53,975 nucleotides of DNA from an uncultured archaeon (GTDB taxonomy: Archaea; Aenigmatarchaeota; Aenigmatarchaeia; CG10238-14; SCSR01). The stretch is from NCBI GenBank assembly GCA_964646855.1, contig CAZYHQ010000003.1:1-53975 (forward strand). The letters run 5' to 3'. Shown here in pieces: positions 25,617 through 49,397 of this stretch. Made by a program: the position numbers and the translations under genes. The number at the start of each line of letters is the position of its first letter. The first letter of the stretch is position 1. The notes under the pieces were generated by a model. It was not told the origin of the DNA. It saw only the letters and a list, made by a program, of their open reading frames with translations, and made no database searches.

Positions 25617-25871
25617 ATGTCGAGTAAAGTAATGACAATTTCTCTAAAGGAAGAAGTCGAAAGAGAATTGAGAAAATTAGCATTGCAAAAATATGGCAGA
25701 ACCAAAGGGGCATTGGCTAAAGTCATAACAGAAGGTGTGAGGGAATTGGAGAAGAAGGAAAAAATTGATTCCGGGTCTATGAAAATACTCGAGATTATCA
25801 AAAAAATTGAGGGTAAAGGTTACGGCGGATTAATAAAATACAAATCAAGAGACGAATTGCATGAAAGATGA
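25617..25871 (+). CDS. vapB: VapB-like antitoxin (ribbon-helix-helix type)
   Basis: 84-aa ORF. MTISLKEEVERELRKLALQKYGRTKGALAKVI resembles an RHH. Overlaps the downstream PIN gene by 11 nt. Confidence 0.6.
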   Translation: MSSKVMTISLKEEVERELRKLALQKYGRTKGALAKVITEGVRELEKKEKIDSGSMKILEIIKKIEGKGYGGLIKYKSRDELHER

Positions 25872-26292
25872 AATGTTTTTCGATACTAACATACTTGCAT
25901 ACGCATTTGACGAAACTGAACGTACAAAAGCACAGATTTGTGCTAAGTTAATTAAAGACGTCACGAAAAGTGATATTTTAGGTTGCCTCTCTAATCAAGT
26001 GCTTGCGGAATTTTATACTTCTCTTACTGAAAGACTTCGCAAACCGCTGCCAAAAAATCTCGCATTATCTCTTACAGAAAGTTTTATCGCTTCGTCTGAT
26101 TGGAAGAAAATAAATTATGATGAGAATACAGTTCGAAGAGCTTTAGACATAGTGGAAAAATTCAACTGCTCAATATGGGATGCGATTATCGTTGAAACAA
26201 TGAAGGAAAACGGAATTAAGAAAATTTTTACTGAGGACAAATTCTTCGATAAAGTGCCGGGTATAGTTGCAATTAATCCTTTCAGAAAGTGA
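25861..26292 (+). CDS. vapC: VapC toxin (PIN-domain ribonuclease)
   Basis: 143-aa ORF with an N-terminal FFDTNIL acidic motif and further acidic residues spaced as in PIN (E..., WDAIIVE, TED). Confidence 0.8.
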   Translation: MKDEMFFDTNILAYAFDETERTKAQICAKLIKDVTKSDILGCLSNQVLAEFYTSLTERLRKPLPKNLALSLTESFIASSDWKKINYDENTVRRALDIVEKFNCSIWDAIIVETMKENGIKKIFTEDKFFDKVPGIVAINPFRK

Positions 26293-26363
26293 GAGTCTAC
26301 AGCAGTAATTTAATCTTTAAATTCTTTCTGTGCGCGGCGAATATGCAGAATTAAGTTGGACGT

Positions 26364-26453: not shown

Positions 26454-26933
26454 ATGGAAAAGTACAGAATTTATTTGGACACAAATACAGTTCAAGACTT
26501 CTTCATTAACCAAGCTTTAGCATTCAAAGGCAAGAGACCATTTCTGATGCCGAAGAAATTGGAATTCTTTATAGACAACATAAGTAAGATGGATTTTGTA
26601 ACTTCGTTCTACACAGAAGCCGAAGTAATGAGGGAGTTGGTAGCAGGTTATGGAATGGATAAAAATAAGGTTGGAGAAATTTGGGACGGGCTCATTAAGT
26701 TGTTAAACTGCGAGTTTATAGCCGAATTCAAATTTGACCGAAGTCTAGCAGAACTTGCCGGCAGTCTGAAATTGAGATTAAGGACTATGATTAACTTCCA
26801 GCATCTGAGAATTGCAATGAGCATAAACGCTTACTTGGTTACAGGTGATAGTGATTTAATCAAAAAATCAAGAGAAAACAAACTTTACGATAAGATTTTG
26901 AGTTACATAGAATTAAGAAAACTTATCGCTTAA
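26454..26933 (+). CDS. PIN-like domain protein (orphan)
   Basis: 159-aa ORF. N-terminal IYLDTNTV and C-terminal YLVTGDSDL acidic motifs in PIN-like spacing. No adjacent upstream antitoxin ORF. Confidence 0.55.
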   Translation: MEKYRIYLDTNTVQDFFINQALAFKGKRPFLMPKKLEFFIDNISKMDFVTSFYTEAEVMRELVAGYGMDKNKVGEIWDGLIKLLNCEFIAEFKFDRSLAELAGSLKLRLRTMINFQHLRIAMSINAYLVTGDSDLIKKSRENKLYDKILSYIELRKLIA

Positions 26934-27423: not shown

Positions 27424-28905
27424 ATGGCTGACAGACTTTTTGTTTTTACTGCAAGTGGAGCTGAAGCCGAAAGACATTACATAGACACGATTGAAGAAGG
27501 ATTTGCTTTTGATAATATTAAAAAATTCTTATCAAGTGAAGAAGCAAATCTAATTAAAAATATTTTTAGAGATCAAAAGATACGTGCGTGGGGTGCGACA
27601 CCAGGCTCTGGTAATAAACGCACATGGAACAACTTGCAAACCGGCGATAAGATTCTTATTTACAGGAATAAACATTTTGACTATGCTGCTGAAGTGGTTT
27701 TTAAATTTCATAACAAAGACTTAGCCGAACACCTTTGGAAAACCAATTCTATGGGTCAAACTTGGGAATACATGTATCTTCTGGACAATTTAACAGAACT
27801 ATCTGTTCCTATAAATGAATTTAATAAAGTTCTCGGGTTTTCGGACAATTATGTCCCACAAGGATTTGCTCAAATAAAAGAAGAGAGATTGCAATCATTT
27901 TCTTCAGTTGATGATTTTTTAAATTATTTGGTGGAGGGACGATGGATTACTGAAAACAAAGAGATTCCAAAAGAAATACAGAGACAAATAATTCGAGAAA
28001 AAGTAAGTAGTTGGCAGATTAGCAGAACTGAAATCTTAGAACAAAATTTGGAAAATCTAATTATTGACAGATTAGATAATCTTGAGCCAGGTTTACAACT
28101 CATGGAACGACAAAAAGATCTTGGGGAAGTCGGCCGTTTGGATTTGCTATGTAAAAACCATAATTATAATTTTGTAGTTATTGAATTGAAAAAATCTAAA
28201 GCAGGGTCATCTGTAATTGATCAAACCGTTCGCTATATGGGATGGGTAAAAACAAATTTGGCAAAACCAGGCCAGACAGTTCGTGGGATAATTATTGTCG
28301 GTAAAGAAGACACATATCTCAGATATGCTGCAGCCGCCTTGCCTGGACTGATAGATGTAAAAGTATTTGACATAGGTCTGAGATCAATTCAAAATGAACA
28401 AAACCCCAAAATTAAAATTGACATAGAAGAAAAAAAGTTACAAACGCTTACAGATTCTATAATGCAGTCTATCGTAACCTGCAACGAAAAATTTATGGGT
28501 CGTAACAGAGGTGAAAACGTTTTCAAACCAACAAATGAATTTCTTCGAGGTTCAAAGATACTAAAAACTCCAGTTAAATCTAAGGAAAATTTCGCGGATT
28601 TTATCGATGCTCTTTACAAAATTATTATTGAAAGTTCTGGAAATCTTGATCGCGTTCCGAATAACTTTAAAAATCTAAATTTTGTAGGAAATGAAATCAA
28701 TTTGTTGAGAAATTATTTTAGACACGACATAGAACATGGGGATTCAACTGCAACCAAGAGACAGAAAACTGTAACAATCTTAAAAAAATATACTGGTAAA
28801 TCTGATTTTGAAAGTTTTGATATAGAAACGCTTATTTCATTTCAGGAAGATTTGCTTGGAAAAGTTTTACAATTCCTTCAAGATTTAGAAAAATCTATAA
28901 TTTAA
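27424..28905 (+). CDS. Multidomain protein: N-terminal reader-like domain + NucS/DUF91-like PD-(D/E)xK nuclease core + C-terminal HEPN-like (Rx4H) domain
   Basis: 493-aa ORF. The central segment GRLDLLCKNHNYNFVVIELKKSKAGSSVIDQTVRYMGW...VRGIIIVG has a D...E-x-K layout as in the NucS C-terminal domain. The C-terminal LLRNYFRHDIEHG fits Rx4H. Confidence 0.6.
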   Translation: MADRLFVFTASGAEAERHYIDTIEEGFAFDNIKKFLSSEEANLIKNIFRDQKIRAWGATPGSGNKRTWNNLQTGDKILIYRNKHFDYAAEVVFKFHNKDLAEHLWKTNSMGQTWEYMYLLDNLTELSVPINEFNKVLGFSDNYVPQGFAQIKEERLQSFSSVDDFLNYLVEGRWITENKEIPKEIQRQIIREKVSSWQISRTEILEQNLENLIIDRLDNLEPGLQLMERQKDLGEVGRLDLLCKNHNYNFVVIELKKSKAGSSVIDQTVRYMGWVKTNLAKPGQTVRGIIIVGKEDTYLRYAAAALPGLIDVKVFDIGLRSIQNEQNPKIKIDIEEKKLQTLTDSIMQSIVTCNEKFMGRNRGENVFKPTNEFLRGSKILKTPVKSKENFADFIDALYKIIIESSGNLDRVPNNFKNLNFVGNEINLLRNYFRHDIEHGDSTATKRQKTVTILKKYTGKSDFESFDIETLISFQEDLLGKVLQFLQDLEKSII

Positions 28906-28986: not shown

Positions 28987-29403
28987 ATGAGTCGGGAAAA
29001 TTTCATTATTAAAGAGATTTCTGCTGATGAAATTCCATACGCTGAATGGCAGAAAGCAGAGAATCTAGTAAAAAAGATTATGGAAAAAGAATTTGAAATG
29101 AAATTTAGTAAACAGAAACTCATAGTCGGTTACAAAACTAACGGTGAACCAAAACACAAAGAATTTGATCTGGTCTCAGAGGACAGTAATATAGTAGTAC
29201 AAGTTAAGAGTTCAAGCCCACAAAAAAGTGGTAGGAAACCTGCAACAAATATAGCAAGATGTTATGGAGATTGTTATCTACTAGAAAAGGTAACTGCATG
29301 GAAGAAAATCTTGGCGCTTACAAATAAAGAGTTTTACGAAATTTTCAAAAAAGATTCAGAAGGTTTAATTTCTGGAATTGAAGTTAGACTAGTTGAAAAA
29401 TAA
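28987..29403 (+). CDS. Hypothetical protein, possible minimal PD-(D/E)xK-like fold
   Basis: 138-aa ORF. EFDLVSEDSNIVVQVKSS gives a D...(Q)-x-K arrangement. Weak, motif-only. Confidence 0.4.
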   Translation: MSRENFIIKEISADEIPYAEWQKAENLVKKIMEKEFEMKFSKQKLIVGYKTNGEPKHKEFDLVSEDSNIVVQVKSSSPQKSGRKPATNIARCYGDCYLLEKVTAWKKILALTNKEFYEIFKKDSEGLISGIEVRLVEK

Positions 29404-29647: not shown

Positions 29648-29762
29648 GCTTCATTGATTAGAATTAATCTTTAAATCCTTAATTTCCCGGCCCCGTATGA
29701 GACGCGCGCAAAATATTTTCTACAGCAGAAAGGTTAAGTGTTTTGGAAAGAAGCTGTAATTA

Positions 29763-30935
29763 ATGGCAAAAAACGAAGAAAACAATGAAGAGGGTATTGT
29801 AGAAAGCAACATAGATAAAATTAGTGATGAAGATAGAGATTTCTATTCAGACGACAATCTTTATAATATCAATTCTTGGGGTGCCGATTTATCTTTTAGA
29901 GAACTAATTACGATGTATGATGAAGGAGAATTATTAAAACCAGAAATCCAAAGATATTATGTCTGGGATAAGGTCGAAGCAAGCAGGTTTATTGAATCTT
30001 TATTGATGGGTTTACCTGTACCAAGTATATTCCTAGCCAAGAAAGAGAATCGAAAGTTAATCGTTGATGGTTATCAAAGAATAATGACTGTCCATGATTT
30101 TATTAAAGGAATTTTTTCTACTGACAATTCGGTATTCAAACTTTCCGATATAGAAGGAATTAATGAAAAATGGAGAGGTAAAACGTTTGAACAGCTAAGC
30201 GCCGACGAGCAAAGAAGGATAAAAAGCACCACAATTCATGCAATAATATTCGAGCAGACAAAACCAGAAGGCACCGATACAAGTTTATATCAGATTTTTG
30301 AAAGAATCAATACTGGAGGAAGAACGCTCACCCCACAGGAAATTAGAAATTGTGTGTACCAAGGGAGTTTTAATAAATTATTGATAAAATTAAACAAAAA
30401 TAATTATTGGAGAAAATTATACCGACAAGAAAATATAGATTTAAGAATGAGAGATATCGAGTTCATACTCAGATTTTTTACGCTATCTGATAGAAATGTT
30501 TTAGAGAAAGGAGTCGCACAAATTTCATTAAAAAAAGAATTGAATCTTTACATGGGAAGCAAAGATTCAACTAATGAAAAAATGCTAATGAAAAGAGAGA
30601 AAGATTTTGAAAAAGTAATGAAATTTATTTATGAAAATTTTGGAGACGAAGCATTTAGAAATTTCGTTAAAAATAAAGATGGTACCTTCAAAGATTTTAA
30701 AACCCTATCAGAAAAATTCAATCCAACGATTTTTGATTCGATTGCCATAGCAACATTATATGCTTTGAAAAGAAATCCTGAAATAAACATTGCAAATCTT
30801 AAACAGAGAAGAATTTCACTTCTTAGAAACAAGGAATTTATAGATTACACTTCTGTGAGAACAACAAACATCAAAAATATTATAGGAAGAATTGATTTGG
30901 CATTACAACATCTTTACGGTATGAAAGATGATTAA
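29763..30935 (+). CDS. DUF262 (ParB/Srx-like, GmrSD N-terminal type) domain protein
   Basis: 390-aa ORF. PEIQRYYVWDKVEASRFIESLLMGLPVPSIFL...IVDGYQRIMTV matches the DUF262 signature (QR..vW, DGxQR). No His-Me/DUF1524-like motif seen in the C-terminal half. Confidence 0.75.
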   Translation: MAKNEENNEEGIVESNIDKISDEDRDFYSDDNLYNINSWGADLSFRELITMYDEGELLKPEIQRYYVWDKVEASRFIESLLMGLPVPSIFLAKKENRKLIVDGYQRIMTVHDFIKGIFSTDNSVFKLSDIEGINEKWRGKTFEQLSADEQRRIKSTTIHAIIFEQTKPEGTDTSLYQIFERINTGGRTLTPQEIRNCVYQGSFNKLLIKLNKNNYWRKLYRQENIDLRMRDIEFILRFFTLSDRNVLEKGVAQISLKKELNLYMGSKDSTNEKMLMKREKDFEKVMKFIYENFGDEAFRNFVKNKDGTFKDFKTLSEKFNPTIFDSIAIATLYALKRNPEINIANLKQRRISLLRNKEFIDYTSVRTTNIKNIIGRIDLALQHLYGMKDD

Positions 30936-31440
30936 TCAAAATATTGATTTGATGCTAAATAACTGTAAAGAAGAACTTAAAATTGCTGGTGGTATAAAAC
31001 AGGCAGTTGGAGCATCAAGCCCAGTAATGATGTTTATTACAAGATATATTTTGATTAAAGTATGTGGTACGATAGAGCTTGCATACAAGACGATTGTTGC
31101 AGATTTTTGTGAAAGTACTCAAAGTGTACAAGTCAAAAATTTTATTTCTGATAGAGTACGAAATAGTTCAGATAACCCAACCATACAAAATATATGTCGG
31201 TTATTGAATTCTTTTGATAAAAATTGGAATAAGAACTTTAAAAAAAAGATAAAACTACTATCGAATAGAGAGAAAATAATTTTGTCTTTAACATCATTAA
31301 ATGATGCTAGAAATGTTTTTGCACATGGGGGTAGCCCGAGCGTTTCTTTTGATGATGTTGTAAATTATTTTGATGATGCTTGTATAATGATTAAACTGTT
31401 GGATGAAGTGGTAAATTCATCTCAACCACAACAAAATTAG
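30928..31440 (+). CDS. HEPN-domain protein (MAE_28990/MAE_18760-like)
   Basis: 170-aa ORF overlapping the DUF262 gene by 8 nt. All-helical. SLNDARNVFAHGG is an Rx4H HEPN motif. Confidence 0.6.
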   Translation: MINQNIDLMLNNCKEELKIAGGIKQAVGASSPVMMFITRYILIKVCGTIELAYKTIVADFCESTQSVQVKNFISDRVRNSSDNPTIQNICRLLNSFDKNWNKNFKKKIKLLSNREKIILSLTSLNDARNVFAHGGSPSVSFDDVVNYFDDACIMIKLLDEVVNSSQPQQN

Positions 31441-32660: not shown

Positions 32661-33458
32661 ATGGATCTTCAAGAATTAATTTCAAGAGGCCGTTTTTTAT
32701 TTTCTGGAGCTAACGAAAGATTGGATGTTTTCAGATTGGTAAATGGGCGACGAAGTGCAAAAGACATTGCAAAGGAGACCAAAAGAAATTTAAACAGTAT
32801 ACTCAATGACCTCAAAAAAATTTCACGTAAGGAACTTATAATTCCAAAAAAGGACAAAGACAGTAAAATTATTAAAAAGCACGGATCGATCGTATACGAA
32901 AAACACCCATTAGCTCAAGACATACCACTTTCATATTTTCAAGATACGGTAAAAGGTCAAAAGAAGATATCAGTGGATGGGCCTCGACACAAGAAAAACA
33001 GAAACAGTCTGTACTCGCCATTAAACTTCCCTACAGAAAATGAAATACTGGATATCGCAAGAGAAGGTGAAAACCAACTTTATGAATTCAAAAGAGCTGG
33101 TGCTGAACCAAAAGATATCACGAAAGAAGCTGCTGCATTTTCAGTGACAAAAAAAGGTGGATTGATATTTTATGGAATAGAAGATGATGGTAAAATTACA
33201 GGCACAGACCTCAGTCGACAGCAACTCGATCAGAGAATTAACAATTCAATAAAAAGTTCCATGGATCCGATAATTATTGTAGATATCAAATCAACTAAAG
33301 TCACTGGAACTGAGGTTATTCTCGTACGTGTACCACCTTGGAATAGAAAAGATGTGTATCAGTATCAGGGTAGAACATATATTCGAATGGGACAAAACTC
33401 GCTCCCAGCAAATTCGAGTATAGTCAAAAAATTACATAGAGGCGAATATGTTACATAA
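32661..33458 (+). CDS. wHTH + AlbA_2 (Schlafen-type putative DNA-binding) domain protein
   Basis: 265-aa ORF. N-terminal HTH-like region. The C-terminal segment REGENQLYEFKRAG...KKGGLIFYGIEDDGKITG...VILVRVPP...YIRMGQNS matches the AlbA_2 pattern (E..EFK...GG.i.iGv.D.G.i.G). Confidence 0.6.
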   Translation: MDLQELISRGRFLFSGANERLDVFRLVNGRRSAKDIAKETKRNLNSILNDLKKISRKELIIPKKDKDSKIIKKHGSIVYEKHPLAQDIPLSYFQDTVKGQKKISVDGPRHKKNRNSLYSPLNFPTENEILDIAREGENQLYEFKRAGAEPKDITKEAAAFSVTKKGGLIFYGIEDDGKITGTDLSRQQLDQRINNSIKSSMDPIIIVDIKSTKVTGTEVILVRVPPWNRKDVYQYQGRTYIRMGQNSLPANSSIVKKLHRGEYVT

Positions 33459-34161: not shown

Positions 34162-34237
34162 TTATTTTTAACCTTTAAATTCTTTAAGCAAAGTATATTC
34201 TACAAAACATATTTCCGTGTGGCTAATCAGACAGGCA

Positions 34238-35275: not shown

Positions 35276-35905
35276 ATGGGCGTTTTGGATAAACTGCGCC
35301 AAATATTCAAGCGATCTGCATCGATGCGCAGCGATGCAACAGCGATGCAAAGCGATGCAGCATCGATGGAAATACCTAGTTCTGAAGCATCCCCTATTTC
35401 CATTGAAAAGGATTCTCTACAGTTGGGAATTGCCGCTGGTTTTACTGGCCGTTCTTTAAGAAATATCGAGGATTCGTTGACAAGGATAGAATCCCAAATG
35501 GTTACGAAAGATTGGGCGACCTTGAACCTTAAAGCGGATCTCGAAAACATTCAGAATTCACTTGATTCTATACTATCTTCAGCTTCTGGGTTGCCGGAAA
35601 CTGTTAGACGCGGTATTGTTTCTGAGGTAGACCGAATTAGGACCACCCTTCAACCAACCTCACGCATGCTTGATATCATTTCTATTGCGCGCGAGGTAAA
35701 AGAAATATCTTACGAAGACCTGGCTAAGCGTCTTGGAATAGAAATTTCCAGTCTAAGAGGCCTGCTTTCTATGATGGGTAGAAGGATTTCTGCGATTGAA
35801 AGGTTTGAACGAGGAAACAAGGGTTGGATAAAATACAAAGAACCGATTACAGCGATGCAAAGCGATGCAAATCGCGAGCAAACTCTCGATGAATCACAAA
35901 AATAA
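35276..35905 (+). CDS. Hypothetical protein with C-terminal winged-helix-like domain; carries in-frame AGCGATGCA DNA repeats
   Basis: 209-aa ORF. C-terminal LDIISIAREVKEISYEDLAKRLGIEISSLRGLLSMMGRR looks HTH-like. The peptide TAMQSDA is encoded twice by an identical 21-mer. Confidence 0.55.
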   Translation: MGVLDKLRQIFKRSASMRSDATAMQSDAASMEIPSSEASPISIEKDSLQLGIAAGFTGRSLRNIEDSLTRIESQMVTKDWATLNLKADLENIQNSLDSILSSASGLPETVRRGIVSEVDRIRTTLQPTSRMLDIISIAREVKEISYEDLAKRLGIEISSLRGLLSMMGRRISAIERFERGNKGWIKYKEPITAMQSDANREQTLDESQK

Positions 35906-49096: not shown

Positions 49097-49309
49097 TGCA
49101 CCACCAAAATTTTGGACGTTCGAGAAAAAGGACTGAAGTCAATTCCCGCGTGTGTAGAAAATTCTAGGTCATATATCAAAGCAACACCATTCTCGAGATG
49201 GTTTTATCCGCTTGGCAGACCGATCGGATATCCCTTAATTAGTATTTGCAATCTTTTAAATTTAACTGTTGCTGGTCTACAGCTATCAAATTTTAAGGAA
49301 AAGTTCAAG

Positions 49310-49397
49310 CGCCCGGAGCGGGATTTGAACCCGCGTCACAGCCGTGACAGGGCTATACCTTTCCAGTCTATATCCTAGGCCGCTAGACGATCCGGGC
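49310..49397 (-). tRNA. tRNA-Asp (anticodon GUC) with a putative 15-nt non-canonical intron between the D arm and anticodon stem
   Basis: Manual fold. Acceptor GCCCGGA/TCCGGGC, discriminator G. Anticodon stem TAGCC/GGCTG, loop CUGUCAC. T arm GCGGG-TTCAAAT-CCCGC. There are 35 nt where 19 are expected between the acceptor and anticodon stems. Confidence 0.7.

Follow-up and report, generated by a model that had tools for sequence, protein, structure and literature searches.

A single-chain NucS-type nuclease in an archaeal AT-rich island: a probable Type IV restriction endonuclease with a HEPN-like tail

In the genome of an uncultured archaeon of the Aenigmatarchaeota (NCBI GenBank assembly GCA_964646855.1), an AT-rich island on contig CAZYHQ010000003.1 carries a gene whose product joins a NucS-type nuclease to two unannotated domains, which raises the question of what such a single-chain protein does. 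The window, meaning the whole stretch of DNA analyzed (positions 1–53,975 of the forward strand, 53,975 nucleotides), holds this gene at 27424–28905 on the plus strand, where the open reading frame (ORF) listing gives an ATG start and 493 aa plus a stop codon. A first-pass annotation, made from the sequence alone, had described a putative DNase fold, a putative RNase fold and a reader module in one protein and had proposed a stand-alone immune effector, which it could not assign to a named system. That annotation proves largely right, the HEPN fold apart, and its proposal stays plausible; a sharper description is that of a Type IV (modification-dependent) restriction endonuclease bearing an accessory tail. 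A Type IV restriction core, comprising a sensor and a NucS-type nuclease, is likely. The combined statement, in which a single polypeptide acts as a Type IV restriction endonuclease and carries a HEPN-like accessory tail, is favored with somewhat less assurance and with the caveats discussed below.

Domain architecture and the sensor–nuclease core

The full-length AlphaFold2 model (41-sequence alignment; mean predicted local distance difference test score (pLDDT) of 84.7) shows three separate domains that fold independently, connected by two linkers (aa 199–204 and aa 317–325, both with pLDDT < 50); the predicted template modeling score (pTM) of 0.46 leaves their relative placement undefined. 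All three lie on the plus strand, as do the residues located below. The N-terminal α/β domain (N-domain; aa 1–198, 27424–28017), with pLDDT mostly above 90, is a predicted modified-base sensor that matches no Pfam family, even when the isolated part is searched at E ≤ 10. It is followed by a NucS_C-type PD-(D/E)xK nuclease domain (aa 205–316, 28036–28371), recognized by Pfam, Foldseek and conservation, and by an all-helical C-terminal tail domain of no annotated family (aa 326–493, 28399–28902), delimited by profile scan and AlphaFold2. The three peptide segments quoted in the first-pass annotation were each found at their place in the translation, and the nucleotide coordinates of the motifs were checked.

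The nuclease assignment is the firmest of the three. Residues 206–291 match Pfam NucS_C (PF01939) at E = 1.6e-10 (41.5 bits, gathering cutoff 24). By phmmer the domain aligns with Pyrococcus abyssi NucS (2vld; E = 1e-3), EndoMS also aligns by sequence, and Foldseek superimposes the domain on EndoMS (5gke) at E = 1.5e-6 with a root-mean-square deviation of 1.9 Å over 110 columns. Seven residues are invariant in 114/114 homologous nuclease domains: the catalytic D240 (28141–28143), E254 and K256 of the catalytic E254-L-K256 (28183–28191), Q267 and Y271 of Q267-x3-Y271 (28222–28236), and the glycines G273 and G288. Because the catalytic residues are invariant in all 114 homologs, the active site looks intact in the predicted protein. 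The NucS_C/DUF91 PD-(D/E)xK core that had been proposed from the letters alone is therefore fully supported by Pfam, phmmer, Foldseek and catalytic-residue conservation.

Most relatives of the query stop after the nuclease. In the large protein collection, ~40 homologs of ~321 aa with 44–61% identity span query residues 1–321, that is, the N-domain and the nuclease, and no separate downstream tail gene was found within 7–8 kb at the loci of these 321-aa homologs. Because ~40 homologs have two domains and no separate tail gene accompanies them, their functional unit appears to be the two-domain core of ~321 aa, with the tail as a rare lineage-specific addition. Among about 15 billion predicted proteins, the three-domain combination was seen in the query, in P0002 and probably in P0121, and only in these does the tail sit on the scaffold of N-domain and NucS_C. 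P0002 (498 aa, 64% identity) comes from an independent sample and shows the three-domain layout in one continuous ORF, which rules out an assembly or frameshift artefact as the source of the fusion. P0121, a fragment of 123 aa with 63% identity to the tail, probably represents a third sighting of the three-domain protein.

The N-domain was recombined with a wide range of effectors. Without NucS_C, it heads McrB-type GTPases; the AAA module of one of these, P0041, matches Escherichia coli McrB (6hz4) at E = 1.3e-7, and its gene is directly followed by a DUF2357+PDDEXK_7 McrC-like gene. In fusions with HNH_2 (e.g., P0051), the HNH_2 module is homologous to the HNH domain of the EVE-HNH enzyme VcaM4I (E = 1.8e-5), and the N-domain occupies the position of the EVE sensor of VcaM4I. 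It is also joined to classical HNH, Cys/His-rich HNH-like and D...EIEH modules and to an Mrr-like core. A census of 44 N-domain loci in reference genomes found a Cys/His-rich HNH-like module in 18, an HNH or HNH_2 module in nine, a D...EIEH module in five, NucS_C in four and a McrB GTPase in one; the remaining seven had a truncated or short ORF or an unclassed C-terminal part. Almost without exception, the partners of the family are nucleases or a McrB GTPase. Hosts belong to at least eight phyla, with DPANN archaea, the candidate phyla radiation (CPR), Firmicutes, Bacteroidota, cyanobacteria, Actinomycetota and proteobacteria among them, and 29 plasmids carry the domain in genes annotated as "HNH endonuclease" or "restriction endonuclease". 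No conserved neighbor gene was found around the homologs, whose neighborhoods differ from genome to genome. By these sequence data, the distribution of the N-domain is sporadic and resembles that of horizontally transferred genes.

One N-terminal module shuffled over restriction-type effectors is a hallmark of Type IV sensor domains (PMC12707154, PMC6765204). Because the N-domain has been recombined with NucS_C, HNH, Mrr-like and McrB effectors, it most plausibly represents such a sensor module. The reader-like module suggested earlier for this region, which the first-pass annotation ranked as its weakest point, is thus well supported by architecture, its profile and fold links to YTH and EVE domains being marginal. 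In the proposed mechanism, incoming DNA would have its modified base flipped by the N-domain into a cage of invariant Trp/Tyr residues, and this binding would bring the NucS-like nuclease, which is probably dimeric, into position for a cut close by.

Two of the closest described systems are fusions of a sensor with a nuclease. VcaM4I and TspA15I (EVE-HNH; PDB 6yex) resemble the predicted protein in having one chain, an N-terminal sensor of the PUA superfamily (a probable one in the query), a C-terminal nuclease and no methyltransferase partner; they differ in that the query sensor is not a Pfam EVE domain, its nuclease is a NucS-type PD-(D/E)xK rather than an HNH domain, and an extra 170-aa tail is present. 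The second is END(Mag), whose iEndoIII modification sensor occurs either on McrB or on a PD-DExK nuclease of NucS-like type; in experiments, the fusion with the nuclease restricts phages that carry modified guanine (PMC12191111). It shares with the query a modification sensor (predicted in the query), the same nuclease type and the alternation of the sensor with a McrB GTPase, whereas its sensor is EndoIII/Ogg-like instead of PUA-like and no third domain has been reported for it. Parallel fusions of EVE with NucS_C were also found (P0071, P0090 and P0111).

Two further N-domain proteins show additional modules. On a Halorubrum ezzemoulense plasmid (L055, 3992–5320), a 442-aa "restriction endonuclease" consists of the N-domain, the Mrr-like core and a ~140-aa unannotated C-terminal region, a further case of a third module added to a sensor–nuclease core. 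In a metagenome-assembled genome (MAG) of Candidatus Tenebribacter davisii (L044, 1404–3902), an 833-aa McrB homolog has the N-domain, then a region of PUA/EVE-like appearance (YWFVCQGKTF...W...GDIIINY) and then the GTPase, and may possibly carry tandem readers.

The C-terminal tail

The tail defines a family of its own. Its members escaped a word-indexed search that used the tail on its own; they emerged when 1.84 billion representatives were scanned exhaustively with HMMER, which gave 178 proteins at E ≤ 1e-3. Among the matches listed (149, query excluded), the tail is C-terminal in 101 and stands alone in 43, and the mutually unrelated clusters to which its partners belong number at least 34. 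Annotated partners include GmrSD_N/DUF262 (nine proteins, some with HNH or GmrSD_C in addition), retron-type reverse transcriptases (two), MerR/helix-turn-helix (HTH) proteins, TPR proteins and STAND NTPases; many partners lack annotation. The nine DUF262 fusions join the tail to a module of the NsnA/PD-T4-2_A type, the type also found in a gene neighboring the query; in that neighboring two-gene DUF262+HEPN system, the HEPN domain is a separate protein. No tail was found on plasmids. Separately, both reverse transcriptases, P0141 and P0160 (L061, 2567–4177), match PADLOC retron-type RT-effector classes at E of about 1e-139 and carry the tail at the C-terminus, in the place taken by protease, TIR or Toprim effectors in other reverse transcriptase classes.

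Conservation was counted over 132 tail domains with a median identity of 28% to the query. The signature R429-N-Y-F-R-H434-D435-I-E-H438-G439 (28708–28740) contains H434, kept in all 132, and R429, kept in 131/132, together with D435 (128/132), G439 (122/132) and H438 (121/132). Outside the signature, E403 (28630–28632) is kept in 131/132, T370 in 124, R410 (28651–28653) in 122, N354 in 121 and K445 (28756–28758) in 120. Since at least one Rx4-6H motif arises in 24% of shuffled tails (two in 2.3%), conservation and not the presence of the motif is the evidence here. By this measure, the two overlapping Rx4-6H motifs noted at first differ: the first (R429...H434) is conserved, but the second retains its R433 in no more than 80/132.

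Several features point to a HEPN-like domain. An AlphaFold2 model of the tail built on 35 sequences (alignment A3) has six helices, with pLDDT 93.0 and pTM 0.87. It places one helix at tail residues 102–114 (protein residues 421–433) and starts the next at residue 442. R429 lies in the last turn of helix 421–433 and H434 is the first residue of the loop, matching HEPN domains, in which the motif spans the junction between a core helix and the loop that comes after it (PMC3710099). The invariant E403 closes the preceding helix, and a conserved loop occupies the space between the two helices, where HEPN has an insert. The fusion repertoire of the tail (restriction endonuclease (REase) fold, HNH, ParB/DUF262, DUF262+HNH, reverse transcriptase, STAND/TPR) mirrors that reported for HEPN (PMC3710099). 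Fusions of HEPN with DNases (PMC3710099) and the tandem-nuclease Type IV systems termed CoCoNuT (PMC11090510) offer a comparison: they share with the query a helix-end R-x4-H, an upstream Glu, common fusion partners and the idea of a combined attack on DNA and RNA. The query tail differs from them in matching no HEPN profile or fold, in its extra D and H and in the atypical residue after the Arg in most members.

These differences, with others, weigh against the HEPN reading. No HEPN profile matched the tail by HMM or by hhalign. The isolated tail has no Pfam match at E ≤ 10; no family recurred when 35 tail domains were scanned against Pfam and PADLOC at relaxed thresholds, and in particular no HEPN family did at E ≤ 1; and the tail profile found only noise among PDB sequences, such as GGA3 and designed proteins. 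ARNVFAHG, which the first-pass annotation likened to the tail motif, is present in the neighboring RiboL-PSP HEPN gene; hhalign of the tail profile with that HEPN protein gave a probability of 0.2% and showed no relation. Despite the pLDDT of 93, Foldseek of the tail against PDB returned a designed bundle as its best match (E = 0.23) and nothing significant, BFVD included; the HEPN toxins 8yuf and 8xdj appeared at E = 1.6–2.6, with a probability of 0.15 or less and TM-scores of 0.21–0.29. The power of Foldseek is low on small helical bundles, so that the missing structural match is not decisive. The residue after the Arg is T in 60, N in 34, L in 13 and A in seven of 132 domains (N430 in the query), so that most members depart from the N/D/H typical of HEPN; E403 does provide a conserved acidic residue in the preceding helix, but G-S-G-x3-R follows it, giving E-x6-R where HEPN typically has Ex3[KR]; and the HEPN signature has no counterpart to the conserved D435 and H438. 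In addition, the neighborhoods of stand-alone tails are not visibly defense-related and contain no adjacent DUF262 or nuclease gene.

The strongest competing explanation leaves the Type IV core in place and takes the tail for a new fold, either with other chemistry, such as a metal site, or as a non-catalytic oligomerization or regulatory module that gates the nuclease. It would account directly for the absence of any HEPN profile match and of a significant PDB or BFVD neighbor for a model of such high confidence, for the residue after R429 being other than N/D/H in most members, and for the ~40 homologs that work without a tail. The conserved H-D-x-x-H-G plus Glu exceeds what HEPN needs and resembles a set of metal ligands; H434, D435, H438 and E403 could form a metal site. 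On the other side, the tail agrees with HEPN in its R-x4-H spacing, in the helix-end position of that motif, in the invariant Glu that precedes it and in the range of fusion partners; a purely structural module would hardly be expected to hold six or seven polar positions almost unchanged at 28% identity; and the weakness of Foldseek on small helical bundles blunts the structural argument. We regard this explanation as a minority possibility. The tail is thus HEPN-like by motif, motif position and context, with HEPN membership itself unproven: of the HEPN claim made in the first-pass annotation, the near-invariant R-x4-H, its helix-end position and the HEPN-like partners stand, but no HEPN profile or significant structural match joins them. 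That the tail is an RNase is a serious possibility, which we stop just short of favoring.

In this lineage, the helical domain with its E...R-x4-H-D-x2-H-G residues was added as a third module. It would most likely provide a second, HEPN-like and metal-independent RNase site, or else a module combining dimerization with catalysis or control, and as an RNase it would supplement DNA restriction with the cleavage of RNA, in the manner of known HEPN–REase fusions. This is the least secure step of the proposed mechanism.

What the N-terminal domain may read

When 177,635 PDB sequences were searched with two profiles of the N-domain (A4 and A5, of which A5 is broader), each placed the Thermococcus gammatolerans McrB (Tg-McrB) YTH domain (6p0f/6p0g) at the top. 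The two domains are collinear through an N-terminal strand/helix, (F/A)WG, a GD-x-hLhY strand and a C-terminal Y-x-P-x-G region. W56-G57 (27589–27594), invariant in three alignments, aligns to FWG of Tg-McrB-N (6p0f); W68 (27625–27627) and W105 (27736–27738) are likewise invariant. The segment T113-W114-E-Y-M-Y118 (27760–27777) contributes two more invariant residues, T113 and W114, together with Y116 and Y118, each kept in at least 90%. The conserved aromatics W56, W68, W105, W114, Y116 and Y118 are candidates for the base-binding cage. With the full-length model, Foldseek matched the EVE-HNH enzyme VcaM4I (6yex) at E = 9.5e-4 with a probability of 0.97, and also MspJI, in a search dominated by the nuclease domain, from which the contribution of the N-domain is not isolable.

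Marginal fold links combined with architecture make a divergent reader of the PUA superfamily (YTH/EVE-like) the best reading of the N-domain. The T. gammatolerans McrB YTH domain binds DNA containing N6-methyladenine (m6A), not RNA (PMC12707154, PMC7544203). By analogy, m6A is the best guess for the base read, and a modified cytosine, as for EVE enzymes, is the alternative. Tg-McrB and the McrBC systems (6p0f, 6p0g) are linked to the query by this best PDB profile match and by the McrB homologs, with a McrC partner, that the N-domain also heads; they differ in that the effector of the query is a fused nuclease and not a GTP-driven motor, the match is marginal and the m6A specificity is an analogy only.

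Four observations count against this assignment. The matches to the Tg-McrB YTH domain have E-values of 0.036 and 0.026; hhalign to the EVE domains of EVE-NucS_C fusions is weak (pairwise E = 0.0013, probability 19%, 26 columns), the aligned stretch being W-G...N...G-D-x-hLhY; and Pfam EVE matches stay below threshold (E = 0.05–0.1). The fourth concerns the target: a C5-methyltransferase and Vsr beside a close homolog are awkward if 5-methylcytosine is targeted in every sequence context. At this locus, in an Aenigmatarchaeota MAG (L002, 9020–12075; the same as L011), a 61%-identical 321-aa homolog lies beside genes for Vsr, a C5 DNA methyltransferase and an HATPase_c_3 protein. The methyltransferase neighbor bears on which modification the family tolerates in its own host.

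The insecure fold assignment also leaves some room for a different function, in which the N-domain would read a small ligand, a site without modification, or RNA that is modified or damaged, and the protein would serve RNA/DNA quality control or act as a toxin instead of in restriction. RNA is a frequent ligand of PUA-superfamily domains (YTH, PUA, ASCH), the literature describes YTH-McrB systems for which an RNA target is predicted (PMC11090510), and some McrB relatives read unmodified sites (PMC12707154). At one locus (L007, 7001–8634), the gene of homolog P0019 overlaps a downstream SPOUT-type RNA methyltransferase gene (Methyltrn_RNA_2) by 4 nt, a possible operon that would fit such a role. 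Yet the partners of the N-domain are overwhelmingly restriction-type DNases (HNH_2 as in VcaM4I, Mrr-like, NucS_C) or McrB followed by McrC, and the nearest solved relative binds DNA, not RNA (PMC7544203). A function outside the sensing of DNA modification is accordingly judged improbable, and the N-domain is taken as the likely modified-base sensor of a Type IV core.

Similarity of the nuclease domain to NucS and EndoMS, nearest in both sequence and structure, could suggest a housekeeping mismatch-repair endonuclease of this type with lineage-specific extensions. The similarity is confined to one half of those proteins. Where the cutoffs of the NCBIfam NucS equivalogs are 216 and 252 bits, the query scores 47.5 and 26.2, over residues 204–291 only and within the C-terminal half of the models, and PDB NucS chains align only over their stretches 127–209 and 132–214. 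The N-terminal part of the query is unrelated to the NucS N-terminal domain. Sliding clamps (PCNA/β) are bound through the motif Qxx[LIVM]xx[FY][FY]; no such motif is present at the C-terminus of the query (...LQDLEKSII), and the 321-aa homologs stop right after the last nuclease strand. NucS/EndoMS (2vld, 5gke) thus shares with the query the catalytic PD-(D/E)xK domain with its D...E-x-K and Q...Y residues, whereas the query lacks the NucS N-terminal domain and the clamp-binding tail and is island-borne and sporadic. A NucS mismatch-repair ortholog is effectively refuted by the half-length match, the failed equivalog cutoffs, the foreign N-domain that recombines with HNH and McrB modules, the lack of a clamp-binding motif, and the sporadic distribution with variable neighborhoods, plasmid copies and a location in an AT-rich island. 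The first-pass annotation had asked whether the homologs might consistently be housekeeping NucS proteins with PCNA-binding tails; they are not, with neighborhoods that vary and no clamp motif.

Sensor-plus-nuclease Type IV enzymes, NucS-like effectors within them and HEPN–DNase fusions are already known. The novelty lies in two domain families that lack annotation, one a sensor that is widespread and the other a tail that is promiscuous, and in the rarity of their union in one chain. A bolder proposal, which we offer only tentatively, is that the tail is an undescribed catalytic effector domain (a divergent HEPN branch or an independent invention) recruited repeatedly by defense-type scaffolds, and that the N-domain is a widespread Type IV sensor family that may read m6A. 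New sensor domains of modular Type IV enzymes are useful for the study of phage–host conflicts over DNA modification and for epigenetic-mapping tools, and knowing what the N-domain reads, possibly m6A, would annotate many genes now called "HNH endonuclease" or "hypothetical". Settling the identity of the tail, as a HEPN RNase or as something new, would give a function to proteins in DUF262, retron-type reverse transcriptase and STAND contexts, and would also test whether single-chain restriction enzymes couple attack on DNA with attack on RNA.

The AT-rich island and neighboring genes

The GC content is 0.30–0.35 over about 25–35 kb of the window, compared with 0.40–0.52 on either flank. Archaeal housekeeping genes on the flanks (for RNA polymerase, with split B'/B'' subunits and the A' subunit, and for EF-2 and GluRS) identify the host as an archaeon, so that the island, with its defense-type content, looks like an acquisition within an archaeal chromosome. 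The AT-rich island with toxin–antitoxin and DUF262 neighbors that had been described around the gene is borne out by this GC profile and by the genes present, all on the plus strand. Upstream, an 84-aa ribbon-helix-helix (RHH)-like ORF overlaps a PIN-domain ORF (PF01850, E = 7e-16) to form a VapBC-type toxin–antitoxin pair (25617–26292), and a second, weakly PIN-like ORF follows at 26454–26933 (E = 0.0032). Downstream, a DUF262/GmrSD_N gene (29763–30935; PADLOC NsnA E = 1.3e-67, PD-T4-2_A E = 6.6e-49) and a gene for a 170-aa RiboL-PSP HEPN protein containing ARNVFAHG (30928–31440; Pfam E = 6.4e-19) make up a two-gene defense module (29763–31440) with an 8-nt overlap. Another defense-type island gene encodes a 265-aa Schlafen AlbA_2 protein (32661–33458; PF04326, E = 2.5e-20), whose N-terminal HTH-like region has weak PADLOC CasR/CARF-HTH matches.

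An orphan ORF of 138 aa (28987–29403, plus strand), 82 nt 3' of the 493-aa gene, displays a PD-(D/E)xK-like pattern (FDLVSED...VVQVK) and possibly encodes a small nuclease; it matched nothing in Pfam, PADLOC, NCBIfam or PDB, and none of the related loci holds a homolog. The same absence of homologs from every related locus led us to reject both flanking ORFs, this one and a 79-aa ORF upstream, as conserved partners. The island edges were scanned for att-like repeats or tRNA genes and none was convincing, the sole tRNA being tRNA-Phe at 49309–49397. Three copies of a 19-nt AT-rich direct repeat, TTTAA(T/C)CTTTAAAT(T/C)CTT, occur at 26309–26327, 29663–29681 and 34167–34185, all intergenic and beside gene ends or starts; it may act as a TATA-like element of archaeal promoters or have a regulatory role specific to the island. 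A 21-nt unit, ACAGCGATGCAAAGCGATGCA, is present in tandem at 35318–35359 and again at 35849–35869. All copies of the unit fall within the ORF at 35276–35905, which has no Pfam match and encodes a 209-aa protein with "MQSDA" peptide repeats at both ends.

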